Shown: piece by piece, positions 7,801 to 64,000 of the stretch
Layout: every line of letters starts with the position of its first letter
How positions within the stretch are numbered: position 1 is the first letter of the stretch
Assembly: GCA_944363575.1 (NCBI GenBank)
Contig: CALVUJ010000010.1
Location: 19,817 to 83,816 of the forward strand
DNA: 64,000 nucleotides
Source of the DNA: an uncultured Bacilli bacterium
GTDB taxonomy: Bacteria > Bacillota_I > Bacilli_A > RFN20 > DUOF01
Reading direction: 5' to 3'
Notes under the pieces: generated by a model
The model's input: the letters and a program-made list of their open reading frames with translations, nothing else
What the model was told of the DNA's origin: nothing
Database searches by the model: none
Translations under genes and position numbers: made by a program

Positions 7801-8884
7801 GAAGGATATTATTATTAAGGTTAGTAAGAGTAAAGATGTTTTTGATAATTTTGGAGAGATGAGTTTAAGTAGTATTGATACTAATGCGGTTGGAGATTTA
7901 TTAGATACTGTGATTAAGTCAGATATTTTTGGTGATTATGTTGTAGAAGAAATTAAGAAACCATTAGTTAATAATGAAGTTTTAGATGATCGTGATATTG
8001 ATGGTGATACTTCTAATTTAGAGGCAAGTATTAGAGGTGTAACTAGTTGGGCAAGTGAACTTAATATTATTAAAGAAATGTTAAATATGACTAGTGAGTC
8101 TTTCTCTACTGTTGTAGATGGTAAGACGATTGTTGAGAAAGTGTTTGATGATATTGAAAGTAGTACTTTGCTTCAGAATACGAGAGCACATTTACTAATT
8201 AAAGCTATTAATACGATTAATTTAGAGGGTGCTAGTGTTCCTAGTGATGTAACAGTAGATACTTTAAAGGCAACATATCTTGATGAAGAATATTATCAAT
8301 ATAATAGGGAAACAGATGTGTTTATAACTTTTGCTAAAAATAGAGAGGCTATTGAAGGATTAAATGATCTTACTAGTCTTGAGTTAGTTCAAAAGAAAGC
8401 AATGGGAGAAATTTTAGATGCGATGAAGTTAAGTAAGATTATGAGTGGCAAGTATACTTCTACTATTAATAGTGCTTTAAGTGTTGTTAAGAATAATGAA
8501 AATCTTACTAATTATGGGGTAACATTTAAGGATGATTATAGTGATGTTGTTTGGTCTAGTGTATATGATGAGAATGATAATATTACTACATATGGTGAGA
8601 TTGAAAACTTATCTATTATAAATAGTAATATTGCTACGGTTAAGGGGTATAATAGTGATTCTTTAGTCAATGATAAGAATGGTACGATTAATATGGTAGG
8701 AACAACACTTGATGCTGTTTCAAGGAGTATGTTGATTGTTGCAAGTGAAGGTACAGATACAGCAGATCAAGTTATTGCTAATCAAGTAATAAGTCAATTG
8801 ACTAATGGTATGGTTACTTCTGTTAGCAAAGAAGAAGGTAAAACATGGACTGAGGCTTTTGAGGAAGCTTTAGGTAGTTATTAA
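4895..8884 (+). CDS. Very large (about 1330 aa) membrane protein. It has 5 N-terminal TM helices followed by a long soluble domain that contains an internal ~165-aa tandem duplication.
   Basis: RBS AAGGTGG precedes ATG 4895. The N-terminus has hydrophobic helices. Repeat units beginning DDRDIDGDTSNL occur twice, about 504 bp apart. Confidence 0.7.
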   Translation: MNDNTISMLFKWGPWVILLLVILFCFGLGVIRGRYKSIRRVSYFLLVAILLWAFMIPLTRFVLNFEINSFGIVTLKDYIINFIESNEEISKFLDKSVELRRIVESYPEVIVSPLLFVVLMIVIVPILYPLYWLYVLLYNLIAKLVFKRNKYMVDETGKVLRNDKGKKVKVDRKAHRLQGGLISIAQGLMFVGVTLLPLNFVNRVVSNTVKETNYDSAASICSLDNFKDFEEYCKYLDMYNDTIFAKIGGNKSLDKYINDHMTTIKIDDWELNLEDELTQTMVSVVLLEDSGLLELFMSGDIDLANINWSKINFDKIDMLIDALFDSNTLSSVIETGVNYVLSEALKDRLIDLLKDDDIVSKLTYENKDEIKADLKEVSSTIRYIVEKEMYKLIVDNVDNPVLIVNGVNESDIEVVLNKLLSVKILSKAMPSVVKAYGEKYGVNEIGNMSDELNEEIVSNIVNAVKFVKTMELTNFDELTEGNLVDNLGNLLFENGVIKDNSKDSMATLLHSLNSSYLFKDVLSTQINKLLEDKDYKVDARVMKYVDSKDGWIKELEVLENAYNLYDEYDKTDVIDYAKVTNLLEELGGTKVFISVLPFAYDELLPKLGVEIDSEGFPVIDFDGENEDSSKVEFYNTWESELVILKEVADAAGILELQGADDVTTDMLKDETKVDALSTIMGEVYKSELLKDGFTTFMLDKVNDFVVEYEVEFSKEELLVIDTKEEWKNEFTNINNVLEIDFSDENNITRDNLEVVFDSIDNMQLFANKKVSILKYAIKKSGFLSEEEYSSINWDSVSWSKETDILLNIVEKRDTIENMSTLDMKTFDSEEIGGLVNTVMSSDILKPIVVNKISVLFVNNDVRDDRDIDGDTSNLKNSISSVSDWKVELGRIKEMLNVSENNMSDVGAGETKNMVEKMFESIESSTLLQNTRAHLLIKAINTINLDGVSVPSDVTVGTLKDNEYANYNKEKDIIIKVSKSKDVFDNFGEMSLSSIDTNAVGDLLDTVIKSDIFGDYVVEEIKKPLVNNEVLDDRDIDGDTSNLEASIRGVTSWASELNIIKEMLNMTSESFSTVVDGKTIVEKVFDDIESSTLLQNTRAHLLIKAINTINLEGASVPSDVTVDTLKATYLDEEYYQYNRETDVFITFAKNREAIEGLNDLTSLELVQKKAMGEILDAMKLSKIMSGKYTSTINSALSVVKNNENLTNYGVTFKDDYSDVVWSSVYDENDNITTYGEIENLSIINSNIATVKGYNSDSLVNDKNGTINMVGTTLDAVSRSMLIVASEGTDTADQVIANQVISQLTNGMVTSVSKEEGKTWTEAFEEALGSY
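7469..8290 (+). repeat. Intragenic tandem duplication of about 500 bp period inside the 1330-aa gene. Unit A is about 7469-7975 and unit B about 7976-8290, with near-identical ~70-nt cores at 7661-7735 and 8159-8233.
   Basis: The string gatgatcgtgatattgatgg occurs at 7481 and 7985. The segment agtagtactt..cttcagaata..agagcacattta..attaaagctattaatacgattaattt is repeated with only 3-4 mismatches. Confidence 0.8.
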
Positions 8885-53699: not shown

Positions 53700-56029
<2,330 letters not shown>

Positions 56030-56044
56030 GAGAGGAGGGATATC

Positions 56045-57472
56045 ATGTATGATGTAATTGTCATTGGAGCAGGTGTTATTGGTGGATGTGTTGCTAGAGA
56101 GTTAGCAAGATATAAGGCTAAAGTTCTTGTTTTAGATAAAGAGAATGATGTTGGTAATGTTACTTCAATGGCTAATAGTGCGATTGTGCATTCAGGGTAT
56201 GATCCTAAACCAGGTACTAATAAAGCGAAGTATAATGTTTTGGGTAATAAGATGTATGATTTGTTAACTAAGGAATTAGATGTAGAATTTAAAAGGATTG
56301 GTTCTCTTACATGTGCGACTAATGAAGAAGAGTTAGAAATCATTAAAAGTTTTGTTAGTAGGGCAAATGATAATGGTGTAGAAGTTAAGATTTTAAATCA
56401 GGAAGAGACAAGGAAGATAGAGCCGTTTGTTAGTGATAGTGTTGTAGGGTCTTTGTATGCTCCTAGTGCGGGTATTATTAATCCTTTTGAATTGTGTGTA
56501 GGTTTGTTTGAGAATGCTTTGGATAATGGGGTTGAGTTATTATTAAATGAAGAAGTAGTAAGTATTGAAAGATTGACTAATAGGTTTGTTGTAAGGACAA
56601 AAGATAAGGAGTTTGAAACTAGGGTAGTTGTTAACGCGGCAGGTTTATATAGTGATAAAATTGCGAAGATGGTAGGGATTGATTACTTTAACATTACTCC
56701 TCGTAAAGGTGAGTATTTTGTTTTGGATCATTTTGAAAAACCTTTTGTTAGTCATGTTATTTTTCCTGTTCCTAGTGAAAAGGGTAAGGGTATTTTAGTT
56801 ACTCCTACGACGCATAATAATTACTTGTTAGGCCCTAGTAGTGAATTTGTTGAGGATAAGAGTGATTTATCTACAGATAAACCTACATTAGATAATGTAA
56901 GGGTGAATGCTAGTAAGTTAGTTAAAAATATTCCTTTTAATTATATTATTAGGCAATTTAGTGGGCTTAGAGCTACTGGTTCTACACATGATTTTATTAT
57001 AGATGAGAGAGATGGGTTTATTACTTTAGGAGGGATTGAATCTCCAGGTTTAGCAAGTGCTCCTGCGATTGGAAAAGAAGCTGTTAGGTTAGTTAATAGT
57101 GTTTTACATTTAGAAACTAATCCTTATTTTAATCCGTTTAGAAGAAAAGTAATAAGACTTAAAAAGATGAGTATAGAAGAGCGTAATGATTTGATTAAGC
57201 AAGATCCTTCTTTTGGGCATATTGTTTGTAGGTGTGAAGGTGTTAGTGAAGGAGAAGTTGTTGATTGTATTCGTCGTAATGCTGGAGCAAGAACAATTAA
57301 GGGTGTTAAGAAACGATGTAGGCCAGGGTTTGGTAAGTGTCAAGGAGGGTTTTGTGAACCTTTAATTATGGAAATACTTGCTAGAGAACTTAATTTGGAT
57401 CCTTTAAATGTGCGTTATGATTCTGTAAAATCGTATATTTTACAGAGTGAGACAAAGGAAGGTGATAAATAA
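56045..57472 (+). CDS. FAD-dependent glycerol-3-phosphate dehydrogenase-like oxidoreductase with a C-terminal BFD-like [2Fe-2S] domain.
   Basis: The FAD-binding GxGxxG site (IVIGAGVIGG) and the C-terminal motifs CRCEGVSEGEV and CRPGFGKCQGGFC are present. It sits in glpK context. Confidence 0.7.
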   Translation: MYDVIVIGAGVIGGCVARELARYKAKVLVLDKENDVGNVTSMANSAIVHSGYDPKPGTNKAKYNVLGNKMYDLLTKELDVEFKRIGSLTCATNEEELEIIKSFVSRANDNGVEVKILNQEETRKIEPFVSDSVVGSLYAPSAGIINPFELCVGLFENALDNGVELLLNEEVVSIERLTNRFVVRTKDKEFETRVVVNAAGLYSDKIAKMVGIDYFNITPRKGEYFVLDHFEKPFVSHVIFPVPSEKGKGILVTPTTHNNYLLGPSSEFVEDKSDLSTDKPTLDNVRVNASKLVKNIPFNYIIRQFSGLRATGSTHDFIIDERDGFITLGGIESPGLASAPAIGKEAVRLVNSVLHLETNPYFNPFRRKVIRLKKMSIEERNDLIKQDPSFGHIVCRCEGVSEGEVVDCIRRNAGARTIKGVKKRCRPGFGKCQGGFCEPLIMEILARELNLDPLNVRYDSVKSYILQSETKEGDK

Positions 57473-58725
57473 TGAAAGAGTATGATTTAGTTGTTGTTGG
57501 GGGCGGAAGTGCAGGGCTTGCAGCCTCTATTGCGGCATATGAAGATGGTGTTAAAAGTATTCTTTTATTAGAAAAAGAAAAGTTTTTAGGGGGAATTTTA
57601 CTTCAGTGTATACATAATGGATTTGGTTTACACGAGTTTAATGAACAGTTAGCAGGGCCGGAGTATGCGCAGAGATTTGTCGATAAGTTTATGAGTTATG
57701 GTATTGAGTATAAGGTTGATACGATGGTTTTAGGTATTAATGAAGATAAAAGTATTATTTATTCTAATAAAGAAGATGGGTATTCTATTGTTAAGGCTAA
57801 AGCGATTATTATGTCTACGGGGTGCAGTGAAAGAACAAGAGGAGCGATTGCAATTCCTGGTAGTAGACCTAGTGGTATTTTAACAGCAGGGTTAGCTCAA
57901 AGATATTTGAATATTGATGGGTATTTAGTAGGTAAGAGAGTGTTTATTTTAGGTAGCGGTGATATTGGGTTAATTATGGCTAGAAGGATGACTTTAGAAG
58001 GTGCTAAAGTTTTAGGAGTAGCGGAGCTTATGCCTTATTCTAATGGGCTAAATCGTAATATTGTTCAGTGCTTACATGATTTTGATATACCATTATATTT
58101 ATCACATACTGTTAGTAATATTATTGGGAAGGATCATTTAGAGAAGATTGTAGTTAGTAAAGTAGATGATAAAATGAATTTTATTGAGGGTAGTGAGATG
58201 GAATTTGAGGTTGATACTTTATTGTTATCAGTAGGGTTATTGCCTTCAAATGTTTTGTTGGAAGATATGGGTATGGAGATGTCTTCTACTAGAGGGCCAA
58301 AAGTTAATGAGATGATGGAAACTTGTAAGGAAGGTATTTTTGCTTGTGGTAATAGTTTGCATGTGCATGATTTGGTTGATTTTGTTACGAAGGAGGGAAG
58401 AGAAGCTGGTAAGGGTGCTAGTAGGTATTTAAAAGGCTTAGTTACAAGAAATGAAGAGTGTTTAGAGTGTGTAGCAGGTGATGGTATTAGTTATGTTATT
58501 CCTCAATATGTTCATGTTAGTAATGTTGATGATAATGTGGAGTTTAAGTTTAGGGTTAGAAGTCCTATGGAAAATAAGAAAATTGTTATTAAAATTAATG
58601 ATCAAGTTATTAAAAGTGTTGTTAAACTTCATTTGTTACCAGCAGAAATGGAAACTGTTGTTGTTAAAAAGGGCGAGTTTACAAGTAATAATGGGAAGTT
58701 AGTTATAGAAGTGGAGGAGAGATAA
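57472..58725 (+). CDS. NAD(P)/FAD-dependent oxidoreductase (pyridine nucleotide-disulfide family).
   Basis: Two Rossmann motifs are present: VVGGGSAGLA and ILGSGDIGL. Confidence 0.7.
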   Translation: MKEYDLVVVGGGSAGLAASIAAYEDGVKSILLLEKEKFLGGILLQCIHNGFGLHEFNEQLAGPEYAQRFVDKFMSYGIEYKVDTMVLGINEDKSIIYSNKEDGYSIVKAKAIIMSTGCSERTRGAIAIPGSRPSGILTAGLAQRYLNIDGYLVGKRVFILGSGDIGLIMARRMTLEGAKVLGVAELMPYSNGLNRNIVQCLHDFDIPLYLSHTVSNIIGKDHLEKIVVSKVDDKMNFIEGSEMEFEVDTLLLSVGLLPSNVLLEDMGMEMSSTRGPKVNEMMETCKEGIFACGNSLHVHDLVDFVTKEGREAGKGASRYLKGLVTRNEECLECVAGDGISYVIPQYVHVSNVDDNVEFKFRVRSPMENKKIVIKINDQVIKSVVKLHLLPAEMETVVVKKGEFTSNNGKLVIEVEER

Positions 58726-58726
58726 A

Positions 58727-59071
58727 ATGAAAGAGTTTATTTGTATTGTTTGTCCTAGAGGGTGTCATTTGAAGGTTGATGATGATGGTAATGTAACTGG
58801 TAATAGTTGTATTAGAGGAGAAAAGTATGGTAAGCAAGAAGCTATTGATCCTAGAAGAACGTTGACATCAACGGTTAAGATTAAATCTGAGTTAGTTAGG
58901 AGATTGCCTGTTGTTAGTAGCGAGGAAATTCCTAAGGATAAAGTTAAAGAGGTGGTGCGTTGTTTGGATAGTGTTGAAGTGAGTGCACCAATAAAAGTTA
59001 AAGATGTTATTGTTAAGAATGTGATGGGGCTTGGTGTAGATATTGTGGCTACTAGAACTATTGAAAAATAA
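58727..59071 (+). CDS. DUF1667 domain protein.
   Basis: The N-terminus ICIVCPRGCHLKV is DUF1667-like. It forms the typical trio with the two preceding oxidoreductases. Confidence 0.65.
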   Translation: MKEFICIVCPRGCHLKVDDDGNVTGNSCIRGEKYGKQEAIDPRRTLTSTVKIKSELVRRLPVVSSEEIPKDKVKEVVRCLDSVEVSAPIKVKDVIVKNVMGLGVDIVATRTIEK

Positions 59072-59098: not shown

Positions 59099-59515
59099 AT
59101 GAATAGTGGACAGATTGTTAGAAGAAATATTGCTCATTTAGGAATCATTTTAGGGAATTTAGGAGCAGTAGGTACGATTATGTTAATAGGGTCAATTAGT
59201 GGAATATTTTTTATTCTTATTTCTTATGTGTTTCTTCTTCTTATTGCGATATTGCTTGTGGGGATACCTTTGACTATTCCTGGATATAGGGCTTTTTTGA
59301 AGTTTGATAATTATGAGCCTATTCTTAATTTTTTGATAGCTTCAGTTCCTTATGTTGCTTCTATTACAGCGATTTTATTAGTTGCTGCGATAGTGTGTAT
59401 GCTTATGGATCCAACATGGAAGAAGGTTAAATGGAGGCTTATTTTAATAGGGGTGGTTTTTGTTGTTTTTGTAATTGCAGTAGTAGTGGCAATAGTTAAG
59501 GAGAATGTAGGATGA
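59099..59515 (+). CDS. Membrane protein (4 TM), hypothetical.
   Basis: Assigned from hydrophobicity alone. Confidence 0.45.
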   Translation: MNSGQIVRRNIAHLGIILGNLGAVGTIMLIGSISGIFFILISYVFLLLIAILLVGIPLTIPGYRAFLKFDNYEPILNFLIASVPYVASITAILLVAAIVCMLMDPTWKKVKWRLILIGVVFVVFVIAVVVAIVKENVG

Positions 59516-60015
59516 AAAGATTAAAATTAAAGATTATTAAAAATTTAAATTATGATCCAATTGTTATAGTGGATAATAAGCTTATTCGTTTAAAGAAGAA
59601 TAGTTATGGAAATAATATCGTGGATATTACTAGTGAGACAGGTGTTGTTAATTTAAAGATTAAGAATTATCATGAAGTAGAGACTGTAACTGGGTTAGTG
59701 ATGGCGATGATTTTTTATGTTATTAGTCTTTTTGGAATTTTTGATATACGATATGGTAAGAAATTTGCGCATATTAATTATGATGGGAATATTACGTTGA
59801 ATAAAGATGAAAATGAATTGACCGTTACTATTTTTCAGATGAAGGATGGGGCGAAAGCTTTGTCTTTTAAGGGAGATTGTGAAGTTGATGATAATGAGAG
59901 TAATATTTATGTTTTAGATAAAAAATTAGCTACTCATTTGCAAATTTTTAAAATATTTAAGATTAGTTTCTTTTTACTTGTGCTTATTAGTATTATAATA
60001 ATAGTAATTATTTAG
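59512..60015 (+). CDS. Hypothetical protein with a central TM helix and a C-terminal TM helix.
   Basis: The 4-bp overlap with the previous gene suggests an operon. Confidence 0.4.
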   Translation: MKRLKLKIIKNLNYDPIVIVDNKLIRLKKNSYGNNIVDITSETGVVNLKIKNYHEVETVTGLVMAMIFYVISLFGIFDIRYGKKFAHINYDGNITLNKDENELTVTIFQMKDGAKALSFKGDCEVDDNESNIYVLDKKLATHLQIFKIFKISFFLLVLISIIIIVII

Positions 60016-60033
60016 AGTTTTGGAGGGGATAGT

Positions 60034-60522
60034 ATGAAACTATATATTAAGAACAAATTTGCTTCGATTACAGGTAAATCAGTTGTCCTTGATGAGAATA
60101 AAAATCCTGTATATAAGGTTAAGGGAAGATTATTTTCTTTTACAAAGAAGAAAAAGATTTATGATTTAGAGAAGAATAAATTGTATACTGTTAGGAATAA
60201 GTATTGGCATTTCTTTATGCATAGTGCATTTGTGTATGATAGTGAGGGTACTAAGATTTTAAAGTTATCGCAAAAATTTAAGTTTGGTATAAAGTTTGTA
60301 GTTGAAGGGTATCAAGATGAGATTAAGATTGAGGGTTCACCTTTTAGATTTAATTGTAGTGTTTATAAGAATGATAAATTAATTGGTAATCTTTATAAGA
60401 AGTATTTCGCTATGGTGGATAGTTATGAGTTAGATATTGAAGATGATGAGAAAGAAAATGCACCTTTGTTTGTGGCGATTGTTATTGCTTTAGATAATAT
60501 AAAAGATAGGAATTTTAAGTAG
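60034..60522 (+). CDS. LURP-one-related/tubby-C-like (DUF567, YxjI-like) protein, putative.
   Basis: The ~160-aa beta-rich protein resembles YxjI/LURP1 family sequences (KNKFASITGKSVVLDENKNPVYKVKGRLFSF). Confidence 0.4.
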   Translation: MKLYIKNKFASITGKSVVLDENKNPVYKVKGRLFSFTKKKKIYDLEKNKLYTVRNKYWHFFMHSAFVYDSEGTKILKLSQKFKFGIKFVVEGYQDEIKIEGSPFRFNCSVYKNDKLIGNLYKKYFAMVDSYELDIEDDEKENAPLFVAIVIALDNIKDRNFK

Positions 60523-60543: not shown

Positions 60544-60572
60544 AAGAAGGTAAAATATACCTTCTTTTTTTA
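60544..60572 (+). terminator. Rho-independent terminator (GAAGGTA-aaata-TACCTTC plus T8).
   Basis: Hairpin plus T-run read directly from the sequence. Confidence 0.75.
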
Positions 60573-60601: not shown

Positions 60602-61165
60602 ATGCTTATAGGTGTAGTAGGTAAGTCTGGGTCTGGGAAGTCATCTTTAGTTAGGAAGATGATGTCTTTTGATAATTCTATAGTGCATATAGATATTGAT
60701 GAAATAGGCAGGGATATTTTAAGGGATGCAGAGATAGTTAAAGAGATTGTGAGAATAGTAGGAGATTGTTCGGTTGTCGTTAATGGTGTGTTGGATCGTA
60801 AGAGGGTAGGTAGAATTATTTTTAATGATGTTAAAAAATATGAAGATTATTATAAGTATACAGAGAAGATAGAATATTCTATTATAGATAAAATTATTGA
60901 GAATAATAATGGTAAGAAGATAGTGTTAGATTGGTTTACTTTGAATAGGACAAAGTATTGGGGTTTTTTAGATTATAAGATTTTAGTGGATGCAAGTTAT
61001 GATATTAGGAAGAGAAGAGTTATTAGTAGGGATAAGATTAGTGAAGATTATTTTGATTTAAGGGAAAAGAAGATGCTTGATTATAATAGGGATGAGATGG
61101 ATTTTATTATTGATGGTAGTTTTAGTGATGATGAGGTTAAACATTTGTTAGGAGAGTTAAAATGA
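60602..61165 (+). CDS. coaE: Dephospho-CoA kinase.
   Basis: The P-loop IGVVGKSGSGKSS, the DxD motif (IDIDEIG) and a CoaE-like lid region (RKRVGRIIFND...VDASYDIRKRRVISRD) are present. Confidence 0.65.
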   Translation: MLIGVVGKSGSGKSSLVRKMMSFDNSIVHIDIDEIGRDILRDAEIVKEIVRIVGDCSVVVNGVLDRKRVGRIIFNDVKKYEDYYKYTEKIEYSIIDKIIENNNGKKIVLDWFTLNRTKYWGFLDYKILVDASYDIRKRRVISRDKISEDYFDLREKKMLDYNRDEMDFIIDGSFSDDEVKHLLGELK

Positions 61166-62475
61166 GTGAGTTATTTATTAGAGAATATGAGAAAATGAAT
61201 GGGTTTAATAGTAGGGATGAGATACTTTATGATGAGTGTTTGTTTTCTTATATTGATATTTTAAAGGAAAAAGAAGTGGAGGTTTATGCTAAAAAGGTAG
61301 TTAGTTGCAAATGTACCTCTAGTGTGAACTTTAATACTTATTATGATAAGTGTGATAAGTGTAAGGGAACAGGCAAGATTAACTTAAATGATAATGAAGT
61401 TAAGTGCAATCATTGTAAGGGAACAGGCAAAGTTATAAAAAACGAATGTCCTTTGTGTAAGGGTGAAGGGAAAGTTATTAAAAAGGGTAAAGTAACAGTT
61501 AAACTTCGTAAAGATTTAAAAGAAGGAGATTTAATCAAACAAGATAATTTAGTTATTAAAGTTAAGATTAAAGATTTAGAGTGTTTTGAGATTAAGGGTA
61601 ATGATGTGTATGATCGAAGAATTATTTGTTTTAATAAAGAGGAAGTTAGTAAGAAAGTTAGTAAGAGTGTTGAGACAATTGAAGATATCGTTTGGGTTAA
61701 GTCTAGTGGAGATAAGGTTGAAGAAGTAGTTAGGTTAGAGGGTAAAGGTTTAAATGGAGGAGATTATTATGTGTGTTTACGTAGTGAGTTAACACCTTTG
61801 AAGGGTAAAGATGCATATAAGAATGTTATTATTAGCAGGGATAAATTAAATTTTTATGTGAAGGTTAAGGAAATAGAGAGCGATAAGTTATGTTTAAATA
61901 CTTATTATTATAAGAAAGTTAATGATAGTGATGAGTATGAGTATCTTAGTTTGAGTGATGTGTATAATTTTAAGATTGTTAAATTAAAGGATAAAGGGTT
62001 GAGGGGTAAGAATGGTGGTAGTAATGGAGATTTATATTTAAGGGTTTTCTTTGATGATGAGTTTAAAAATATTGATGATAAATTGTATTATAAACCTGTA
62101 TTGCTTAGTAAATATGAAATTAGTGATGGGAAGAAAGTTTTAGAGTTTGCTAAAACGAGAATTAATTTATCTTTTATGAAAAATATAGATAAAGAGGAAG
62201 TAATTAAAGTTAAGGATTATGGGTTTATGAAGGGGAAGGATGAGTTTTTAGATTTATATGTTACTTTGAATCCATATGGTATGGAAGTGTATAAGGTTAG
62301 TGTTAAGGTGAATAAGAAAGATAAGATAGTTTATTTAGGTGATTATAAGTATTACTTTTATGAAGAAGTTAAGGTTAAGAAGGATGGTTTAAAGGTTCTT
62401 TTAAGTAAGAAGAGTGACAATGTAGAAGTTAGTGATGGGAATAATAAAGTAATTGTTAGAGTTCTTAGGGGGTGA
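61162..62475 (+). CDS. DnaJ-type cysteine-rich zinc-finger protein lacking a J-domain. Three CxxCxGxGK repeats plus a C-terminal beta domain.
   Basis: The repeats are CDKCKGTGK, CNHCKGTGK and CPLCKGEGK. No HPD motif is present. The gene overlaps the coaE stop (ATGA). Confidence 0.55.
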   Translation: MSELFIREYEKMNGFNSRDEILYDECLFSYIDILKEKEVEVYAKKVVSCKCTSSVNFNTYYDKCDKCKGTGKINLNDNEVKCNHCKGTGKVIKNECPLCKGEGKVIKKGKVTVKLRKDLKEGDLIKQDNLVIKVKIKDLECFEIKGNDVYDRRIICFNKEEVSKKVSKSVETIEDIVWVKSSGDKVEEVVRLEGKGLNGGDYYVCLRSELTPLKGKDAYKNVIISRDKLNFYVKVKEIESDKLCLNTYYYKKVNDSDEYEYLSLSDVYNFKIVKLKDKGLRGKNGGSNGDLYLRVFFDDEFKNIDDKLYYKPVLLSKYEISDGKKVLEFAKTRINLSFMKNIDKEEVIKVKDYGFMKGKDEFLDLYVTLNPYGMEVYKVSVKVNKKDKIVYLGDYKYYFYEEVKVKKDGLKVLLSKKSDNVEVSDGNNKVIVRVLRG

Positions 62476-62479
62476 AAGG

Positions 62480-64000
62480 ATGAGTATTTTCTTTGATTTT
62501 AGTGAGATTTATAAAAATGAGTATAGTAAAAGGATGGCAGGAGCTTCTTTTTATAAGTTTTTAGATTATCAAAATATTGATTTAGATTATTTTGTAAAAG
62601 AAATTATAGTTAAAGAAAATACTTTTTTAGTAGCATGTTCTAGTATGGAGAGAAGGCTTTTAAAAGATATTAATTTTTCTTATTATAAGAATTTCTTTTT
62701 AAGGCCTAAAAATAGTGTTTATCAGTTAGTGGGAGATTTTGTTATTGAGAATAATAATGAGAGTTATTTTAAGGTTAAAGATCTTTTTATTAATGATAGT
62801 TTGAGTGTTAAAAAATATGAAAAAGAGTTTAGTTTTGAAGTTAGGATTAGAGTGGAGCAGAAGAAGTGTGAAAGTAATTTAAAAGAGATTAGAAGTATTG
62901 TTAATGAGACAATTAATGTTTATGATTATCGTTGTTTAGATTTTGTTAGAGATTTTGATAGTTATTTGGAGTTTGAGAAGAAGTATTTTTTAAGAAAATT
63001 AGGATTTTATAAGAGTGATGGGTTTAAAGTTATTGAGTTAAAGGAAATTAAAAGAAATCTTAGTTTGCTTAAAAAATATGAGGATGTTCTTTATTTTGAT
63101 GATGGAAATAATTATTTTTATGTTGATGGGGATAGTGAGGTTAGTGAGCCTTATAATAGTGTAATGGCCGTGGAGTTTTTAGTGAGTATTAGAAGTGATG
63201 AGGGTAGTTTTAATAAGTTGCAGTTTTTTGTGAGTCAGGAAATTGAGATTGCTAATGTTAAGGAAGCATTAGAGGGCGATAAACTTATTACATCAGGGAA
63301 AGAGTTAGAGTTTAGTTTTAAGACAAGGAGACTTGGTAGTTTGTTAGCACCACTTGAGGAAGTTAGTAGGACTAGTGAGGAAATTACTTATCGTTTTTCA
63401 AAGTTTTGGAGCGATGAGGATAGCGATGTATATTTTAGTTTTGCTAGAGTGAGTGATTATATCACTTCATTATTTGGAGAGAAGCCTTTGTTAGTTAATA
63501 TTTTGAGTGGTGATGTTGCACTTTATAAAAGAGGGAAGCAAGCTTTAAAAGATTTAAAAGAAGGGAATGTTAAAAGTCCTGGTATTGCGAGTTGTTTGTT
63601 CAATATTAGTGAGTATGAGACAAGGGAAGATCTTTTTAAGAAAGATGAAATTGAATGGAGTAATAATTCGTTAGATAGATATCAAAAAGAAGCTGTTTTT
63701 AGGGCACTTAATTCTAATTCAATCTTTTTATTACAAGGGCCACCAGGTACCGGTAAGACTCAAACGATTACGGAAATGGTTTATCAGTTTAATAAAAGGG
63801 GCAAGAAAGTGCTTTTATCATCACAAACGCATGTGGCTATTGATAACGTTATTGAAAGATTACCAGATGAATTGAATGTGTTACCTATTAGATTAATTAA
63901 TAGTGAAAGAAAGATGAAGGCTAGTAAAAACTATTTGCCGGATAAATTAGTAGATAATTTTTATGATAAAATGAAGAATAAGTATATGAATAAAGAAGTT
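62480..64000 (+). CDS. Superfamily-1 (Upf1/DNA2-like, AAA_11/AAA_12) helicase with a ~400-aa N-terminal domain of unknown function. 3'-truncated at the window edge.
   Basis: The ORF is open from ATG 62480 to the window end and is not in the ORF track. Walker A LLQGPPGTGKTQTITEMV is present. The upstream Q-motif-like segment is RYQKEAVFRAL. It lies 4 bp after the previous gene. Confidence 0.6.
   Translation, partial: MSIFFDFSEIYKNEYSKRMAGASFYKFLDYQNIDLDYFVKEIIVKENTFLVACSSMERRLLKDINFSYYKNFFLRPKNSVYQLVGDFVIENNNESYFKVKDLFINDSLSVKKYEKEFSFEVRIRVEQKKCESNLKEIRSIVNETINVYDYRCLDFVRDFDSYLEFEKKYFLRKLGFYKSDGFKVIELKEIKRNLSLLKKYEDVLYFDDGNNYFYVDGDSEVSEPYNSVMAVEFLVSIRSDEGSFNKLQFFVSQEIEIANVKEALEGDKLITSGKELEFSFKTRRLGSLLAPLEEVSRTSEEITYRFSKFWSDEDSDVYFSFARVSDYITSLFGEKPLLVNILSGDVALYKRGKQALKDLKEGNVKSPGIASCLFNISEYETREDLFKKDEIEWSNNSLDRYQKEAVFRALNSNSIFLLQGPPGTGKTQTITEMVYQFNKRGKKVLLSSQTHVAIDNVIERLPDELNVLPIRLINSERKMKASKNYLPDKLVDNFYDKMKNKYMNKEV

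Follow-up and report, generated by a model that had tools for sequence, protein, structure and literature searches.

What does a Upf1-like helicase do in a bacterium when its partners are relatives of a chaperone? Bacterial helicases of this kind have so far been understood mainly in defence systems with nuclease partners. In a 64,000-nucleotide (nt) stretch of DNA from an uncultured Bacilli bacterium (GenBank assembly GCA_944363575.1, contig CALVUJ010000010.1, positions 19,817 to 83,816; hereafter the window), a gene for a DnaJ (Hsp40) paralogue lacking a J-domain directly precedes one for a Upf1/MkoA-like superfamily 1B (SF1B) helicase that runs off the end of the sequence. Relatives of this locus add a second Hsp40 paralogue, an orphan protein and a membrane and surface protein pair. 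The five genes form a conserved, tightly coupled unit (hereafter the module), which has been met only in one small group of uncultured Bacilli from the gut. We read it, tentatively and with a confidence that stops just short of probable, as a clade-specific operon for a membrane-tethered helicase complex that uses Hsp40-derived adaptors, most likely in nucleic-acid surveillance; a non-immune, envelope-linked role is allowed almost equally well by the evidence.

The first gene of the module (61162..62475, + strand) encodes a protein of 437 amino acids (aa; 431–451 aa in orthologues) in which a short N-terminal stretch leads into a zinc-finger domain followed by DnaJ C-terminal domains (CTDs). 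It matches Pfam DnaJ_C (E=1.5e-11) and DnaJ_CXXCXGXG (E=1.2e-6; 29.1 bits, slightly under the cut-off of 32.7). Residues 35–198 align with positions 132–317 of the NCBIfam DnaJ_bact profile, and BLASTP against canonical DnaJ covers DnaJ residues 142–347, comprising the zinc finger, CTD-I and CTD-II. A preliminary description of this DNA had reported three zinc-finger repeats and no J-domain, and both observations hold: a search for PF00226 gave no match, the DnaJ alignment begins only at profile position 132, and exactly three CxxCxGxG motifs are present (CDKCKGTG, aa 64–71; CNHCKGTG, aa 82–89; CPLCKGEG, aa 96–103). These are preceded by CKC (aa 49–51), and the eight cysteines of the region (61306..61470, + strand), which aligns to the solved Cys-rich domain of DnaJ (1exk, E=1.4e-4), are enough for two Zn centres. 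The GxG..NGG..GDLY signature of the CTDs occurs twice, weakly at aa 199–202 and in full at aa 282–292. The protein contains no detected hydrophobic segment and is soluble.

The helicase gene begins 4 bp downstream (DnaJ-paralogue stop 62473–62475, helicase ATG 62480, with GGGGGTGAAAGG upstream) and continues without a stop for 507 codons up to the window edge (62480..64000, + strand), in agreement with the earlier account of an open reading frame (ORF) starting 4 bp later. The window thus holds the 5' part of a gene of about 1,150–1,160 codons, whose full-length product is known from orthologues only (1,134–1,159 aa). The start of RecA1 (63671..64000) contains, on the same strand, a Q-motif-like YQKEAV (63680–63697, aa 401–406), Walker A GPPGTGKT (63737–63760, aa 420–427) and motif Ia SQTHVAIDN (63821–63847, aa 448–456), and the fragment matches Pfam AAA_11 (E=8.6e-19), so that the SF1 core recognised earlier is borne out. 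Full-length orthologues match both AAA_11 (E=7.5e-35) and AAA_12 (E=1.9e-40) and retain intact SF1 motifs, namely II (DEVSKA), III (GDHRQLPP), QGKEED and RINVALSRA, with motifs V and VI present. Among PADLOC profiles, MkoA fits the full-length orthologue best (E=4.2e-103, 344.6 bits; E=2.2e-33 for the window fragment, beginning at aa 259). Sequence matches extend over both RecA domains of solved IGHMBP2 (4b3f), DNA2 (5eax), Sen1 (5mzn) and Upf1 (2xzo), with E-values of 1e-30 to 1e-20, which agrees with the Upf1/DNA2-like assignment made before. The motifs point to an apparently active Upf1/MkoA-type helicase, which, going by its family, would translocate 5' to 3' on single-stranded RNA or DNA.

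The preliminary description had also assigned about 400 aa ahead of the helicase core to an unknown domain. This stands for the first approximately 180 aa and fails for the remainder. The N-terminal region from aa 1 to about 180 (62480..63019, + strand) is clade-specific: searches with Pfam, NCBIfam, PADLOC and PHROG gave no match at E<=0.1, and a phmmer search with aa 1–345 against 1.84 billion representatives returned 15 matches, all apparently members or fragments of this clade (three full-length or nearly so, i.e. the L016 type, the L098 type and P0212; the rest mostly short, highly identical fragments). Its alignment shows the conserved motifs FDF, YKNFFxR, YxVKDxY and YLEFE and no recognisable nuclease motif, with the limit that the AlphaFold2 (AF2) model has low confidence here (predicted local distance difference test (pLDDT) below 55 for aa 1–150) and a cryptic fold is possible. 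The pre-RecA1 region that follows (aa ~183–397, 63026..63670, + strand) is of a different kind. It is modelled with confidence as alpha/beta (pLDDT 85–95 for aa 170–350) and includes a conserved GDxALYKRGKxAL helix (aa 344–353); the helicase aligns to IGHMBP2 (4b3f) from aa 342, the helix ahead of RecA1 aligning to IGHMBP2 residues 137–190. Aa 183–1141 of the orthologue align with positions 442–1094 of the 1112 in the MkoA profile, and the helicase domain of MkoA comprises residues 460–1215 of the E. coli protein (Millman et al. 2022 preprint); aa ~183–400 are therefore a stalk/1B accessory part of the helicase. The AF2 model agrees in part with this assignment, its top Foldseek matches being Aquarius, Sen1 and Upf1, all non-significant (E 0.02–0.2).

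The genes 3' of the helicase lie outside the window and were read in relatives. A scan of GTDB species genomes identified four uncultured gut 'Bacilli' metagenome-assembled genomes whose helicases are 72–77% identical over the window fragment, and exact-protein look-ups added five further loci (labelled L016, L017, L098, L101 and L102). In all ten loci (these five, the window, L009, L010, L011 and, partially, L012), the order is kept wherever the contig allows: J-less DnaJ paralogue, helicase, orphan, J-domain-containing paralogue and immunoglobulin (Ig)-like protein, separated by only -11 to +18 nt. The module also persists in distant relatives, L016 and L098, whose helicases are 46–49% and partners 26–33% identical; the L098 module (helicase 46%) sits in another context, after miaA, ThiF, SpoU, YcxB and MazG-like genes.

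Three further genes follow the helicase in these relatives. The orphan (258–340 aa) belongs to a family of ~57 clusters, all within this clade, and has no match in Pfam, NCBIfam, PADLOC or PHROG. Its AF2 model is highly confident (pLDDT 92.9) and resembles nothing in PDB or BFVD at E<0.5; the sole resemblance is a non-significant alignment of ~80 aa to MarR-type (winged-helix-like) proteins (E 1.5–2, probability ~0.5). The second DnaJ paralogue (452–483 aa) has a detectable J-domain (E 2e-8 to 3e-13), aligns with positions 1–306 of the 354 in DnaJ_bact and carries hydrophobic segments at its C-terminus (aa 433–483), which are predicted to form two transmembrane helices. The HPD tripeptide of its J-domain is replaced in 7/7 orthologues by DPS, DPK, NPK, DPH or DPA. 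The last protein (776–895 aa; its L016 counterpart is a 522-aa ORF with 26% identity) has a signal-like N-terminal segment and a C-terminal anchor, as predicted for a type-I membrane protein with extracellular Ig-like domains.

The two DnaJ paralogues are related to each other (E=1e-8) and score 72 and 100 bits against a DnaJ family cut-off of 377. Like class A Hsp40 DnaJ, CbpA and anti-TRAP, they combine a Cys-rich zinc finger with C-terminal beta-sandwich domains. Unlike class A DnaJ, the soluble paralogue lacks both the J-domain and the G/F (glycine/phenylalanine) region and has a duplicated CTD signature, whereas the membrane paralogue has D/N-P-x in place of HPD and carries two C-terminal transmembrane helices. 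The HPD tripeptide is indispensable for stimulation of Hsp70. With the J-domain lost in one and HPD in the other, neither would be expected to work as a canonical J-protein and activate Hsp70. A comparable loss of HPD is known from mitochondrial Pam16/Tim16, a J-fold protein thought to be a regulatory or structural partner, which has neither zinc finger nor CTDs; the likeness to the J-like protein of the module is one of description.

Every strong PADLOC match of the helicase is a defence helicase, MkoC, Hhe, DpdJ and PDC-S37 following MkoA by a wide margin (MkoC in the helicase part only), which raises the question of whether the module is simply a member of a known system such as Mokosh, type I or II, or the Nhi-like nuclease-helicases that the preliminary description had invoked. 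Mokosh combines a Upf1-like helicase with a phospholipase D (PLD) nuclease, and type I MkoA additionally has a Ser/Thr kinase domain (Millman et al. 2022 preprint). The module helicase shares with type I MkoA (PADLOC PDLC03920) the COG1112 SF1B helicase domain, including the pre-RecA1 region, and intact ATPase motifs. It differs in that MkoA positions 1–441 are unmatched, no Ser/Thr kinase was found in aa 1–400, and the module proteins of L009, L016 and L098 have no Pfam or PADLOC match to MkoB/PLD, as partner or as fusion. A further difference is a K/N/E-rich insertion of ~300 aa that separates motifs Ia and II and is missing from the MkoA profile. The proteins encoded alongside the helicase are Hsp40 paralogues, an orphan and membrane proteins, and the whole module has a fixed chromosomal place in a single clade. 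The module is not Mokosh, because PLD nuclease and kinase are absent. Nhi resembles it in being a bacterial Upf1-like helicase with an additional N-terminal region, but neither the helicase N-terminus nor any of the partners yielded a nuclease and no Nhi PADLOC profile matched, for which reason the module is not Nhi either. NCBIfam points in the same direction, its anti-phage models remaining far below their cut-offs (ProA 81 against 1500, Hhe 64 against 2000, PLuB likewise). Genuine membership in a known helicase defence family is therefore very improbable. The eukaryotic and archaeal Upf1-like helicases (IGHMBP2, DNA2, Sen1 and Upf1), although similar over both RecA domains, have no counterpart of the N-terminal 180 aa or the large insertion, and the NCBIfam model of the IGHMBP2 family helicase scores 217.7 bits, under its cut-off of 348.9; no NCBIfam model reached its cut-off on the helicase. 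In the literature searched, we found neither a link of DnaJ-like proteins with Upf1-like helicases in bacteria nor this gene combination.

If the module is not an established defence system, what joins its parts? We propose that the five products would assemble at the membrane. The two Hsp40-derived proteins would keep their zinc-finger and C-terminal client-binding modules and, being unable to drive an Hsp70 cycle, would therefore act as adaptors or sensors and link the helicase with the pair of membrane proteins. When these adaptors bind a polypeptide ligand, the helicase may respond by ATP-driven 5'-to-3' movement along single-stranded nucleic acid, a substrate that the orphan may help to hold. 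The likeliest role would be surveillance of incoming or aberrant nucleic acid, an immune function that shares with Mokosh the motor only.

That this role is immune we consider possible, somewhat less than probable. Host DnaJ mediates phage sensing for bNACHT25 (PMC12169576), a case in which an Hsp40 likewise serves as the intermediary reporting a phage protein to an immune effector. The difference is that a housekeeping DnaJ acts there with a NACHT effector, whereas the operon described here has dedicated, degenerate DnaJ paralogues and a helicase. This precedent, the family affinities of the motor and the fast evolution of the partners would favour immunity. Compared with L009 across the coaE-linked subclade, described below, identities are 76–92% for the glp genes upstream and 80–88% for an AbiL pair downstream, 68–80% for the helicase and 49–72% for CoaE, but only 53–59% for the J-less DnaJ paralogue, 52–60% for the orphan, 47–55% for the J-like protein and 45–50% for the Ig-like protein; the motor is conserved, and its partners evolve faster than both motor and neighbour genes. 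Sister helicases in contexts with integrase, Bro-N, HTH (helix-turn-helix), Fic and HipA genes, and the AbiL pair and variable slots that flank the module, point towards immunity as well. A more specific version, which we regard as unlikely though worth stating, is a new membrane-coupled immune system in which the Ig-like surface protein and the membrane-anchored pseudo-DnaJ would report an envelope event, or the Hsp40 modules would capture a phage polypeptide, and thereby license the helicase to strip or unwind invader nucleic acid.

Other evidence weighs against surveillance. Inheritance is vertical, and the module keeps both its position and its full set of genes: within the coaE-linked subclade it occupies the same place in 7/7 relatives. 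Its base composition is native, with a GC content of 0.28–0.29 and a GC skew of +0.6 that equal or slightly exceed those of the rest of the window, and no relatives were found on IMG/VR viral contigs. No effector was detected either, as searches of the five module proteins (L009, L016 and L098) for PLD, kinase, nuclease, TIR, SIR2 or protease domains found none and PADLOC matched none of the helicase's partners. Since all relatives were found via module proteins, clade genomes without the module are not countable. Finally, it is from family knowledge that we infer complex formation, membrane tethering, nucleic-acid substrate and polarity.

Several of these observations instead favour a lineage-specific housekeeping role without immunity, for example with the Hsp40 paralogues as holdases for the biogenesis of the Ig-like protein (as TopJ for Mycoplasma adhesins), or with the helicase as a membrane-associated RNA/DNA remodeller replacing functions lost in a reduced genome. 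Besides the fixed position, completeness, native composition and missing effector, this explanation can draw on the retention of the module even where helicase identity has fallen to 46% and where the genomic context is another, on its co-transcription with coaE, on the inclusion of a membrane and a surface protein, and on a weak match of the second paralogue's J-domain to TopJ models (41 bits). On the other hand, we are aware of no bacterial Upf1-like helicase whose housekeeping role is well characterised, the closest relatives of the module's helicase lie in mobile or defence-like contexts, and a J-domain without HPD speaks against the usual co-chaperone partnership with DnaK. A chaperone-for-adhesin model would leave helicase and orphan without a task, and the partners evolve unusually fast. 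We consider a housekeeping role a serious contender, albeit one that we would not call likely.

Position decides less between these readings than it might seem. The preliminary description had held that a housekeeping helicase at the same place in all relatives, with no variable neighbourhood, would speak against defence; the place is indeed the same, and variable slots and an AbiL pair flank it. AbiLi/AbiLii-like genes lie directly 3' of the module in five genomes (PADLOC AbiLi E=6.5e-66; L009 19285–21046, L010 18446–20216, L017 19783–21347, L101 20026–21350, L102 16815–17526), in some of them after an intervening PHP phosphoesterase gene. AbiL is an established defence system, and within this clade its synteny equals that of core genes and its conservation even exceeds that of the module; a fixed position is therefore weak evidence against defence.

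Either outcome would be of interest. Here the motor is accompanied by two Hsp40 paralogues, an orphan and a membrane/surface pair; if the surveillance complex we favour is immune, it would add a chaperone-derived, client-binding sensor principle and a membrane link to helicase-based systems and echo the finding of phage sensing by host DnaJ. If immunity is membrane-coupled, the module would be an example from prokaryotes of J-protein derivatives that are independent of Hsp70 and dedicated to immune sensing for a Upf1-family motor. If it is not immune, its helicase would be one of the few of the Upf1-like kind in bacteria to have a settled cellular function, and its J-proteins would have been repurposed without Hsp70. 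The five-gene unit is compact and testable either way, and its confinement to a small uncultured clade limits its immediate reach.

The operon starts upstream of the module. An intrinsic-terminator-like hairpin (60544..60566, + strand; 9-bp stem, then TTTTTATT) terminates the preceding LOR-family gene and is the 5' boundary of a transcription unit that begins with coaE; in L009, coaE is also preceded by an equivalent terminator-like site (8016–8040). An Rfam search for structured RNA near the operon start gave nothing meaningful. The coaE gene (60602..61165, + strand) encodes a CoaE-like P-loop kinase of 187 aa that exceeds the Pfam CoaE cut-off (43.3 bits, cut-off 27), falls below that of TIGR00152 (57.4 bits, cut-off 65.55) and can be aligned over its whole length with dephospho-CoA kinases of solved structure (2if2, E=1.3e-11). 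It is probably a genuine dephospho-CoA kinase, i.e. a housekeeping gene.

Could the kinase belong functionally to the helicase/DnaJ system, phosphorylating it or providing it with a CoA-related nucleotide? The gene directly precedes the module in the window, L009, L010, L011, L017, L101 and L102. The ATGA coupling of coaE to the DnaJ paralogue reported in the preliminary description is present at the 61162 start (GTTAAAATGAGTGAG); the same stop/start overlap occurs in L009, L010 and L011, and L017 has an 11-nt overlap. This retention, and the terminator immediately 5' of coaE, would fit a functional linkage. However, the protein looks like an ordinary dephospho-CoA kinase over its entire length, close gene packing is widespread in this genome, and L098 has no CoaE gene within 10 kb on either side of its module. 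We hold a functional role for the kinase to be highly unlikely; because the module occurs without it in L098, coaE is an operon passenger that in one subclade merely shares the module's promoter. The tight three-gene unit continuing past the window that had been described accordingly extends, by three more conserved genes in every relative, and loses coaE at its other end. A CoA-related function of the module was rejected on the same absence.

Directly upstream in the window lies a glycerol-utilisation cluster (54524–59071) of an FGGY kinase, two oxidoreductases dependent on flavin adenine dinucleotide (475 and 417 aa) and a DUF1667 protein, which, being 81–90% identical to its relatives, served as the anchor for synteny comparison. 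A scan of metagenome contigs with the 417-aa oxidoreductase yielded 80 loci, 0/80 with a module gene; only two short close relatives were among them, and the scan is therefore uninformative on the clade itself. Between the DUF1667 gene and coaE, every genome has different genes (window 59099–60522; L009 4689–7988; L011 2533–7993; L017 8462–9370; L101 8099–9340; L102 1–5512). This slot contains two small membrane ORFs and a LURP-one/LOR-family protein (60034–60522) in the window, and elsewhere a pair of 665 and 248 aa (668 and 256 aa in L011) without assigned function, an ADP-ribosylglycohydrolase with a GNAT protein, LDH, or BspA-type leucine-rich repeat proteins; it is empty in L010. It looks like an integration hot spot. 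A phage origin of the module itself was considered and rejected, as PHROGs gave merely generic DnaJ and helicase matches for its proteins and IMG/VR holds no relatives.

GC content is about 30% over the whole window, the coding-strand GC skew is extreme, and the module region does not stand out in composition. In 2-kb bins, the skew is +0.34 to +0.68 nearly throughout and ~0 only at 10–16 kb, a stretch of minus-strand genes; nearly all genes of the window are co-oriented.

The sister helicases (35–55% identical around motif I) lack all four module partners, and their neighbourhoods include integrase, Bro-N, HTH, Fic, HipA and Clp-like AAA_2 genes. They are called as two or three ORFs that break within the K/N/E-rich insertion (L002 10001–14654, L006 10001–14467, L013 7332–11224, L003 10001–12235, L014 10001–11890). 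The two helicase ORFs of L006 share a frame and lie ~100 nt apart, those of L013 overlap in another frame, and the L003 and L014 helicases lack the C-terminal RecA2 half entirely; these could be split helicases or products of programmed recoding or decay. Nearby, a Clp-like AAA_2 ATPase and its neighbour recur, with 66% identity for the ATPase and 50% for the neighbour when L003 and L006 are compared, and the islands of L003 and L014 also encode a small radical-SAM protein (L003 15080–17987, L006 16592–19539, L014 17780–18352). The AAA_2 set may belong to a second, uncharacterised system that shares these islands and likewise includes an ATPase of a chaperone family.

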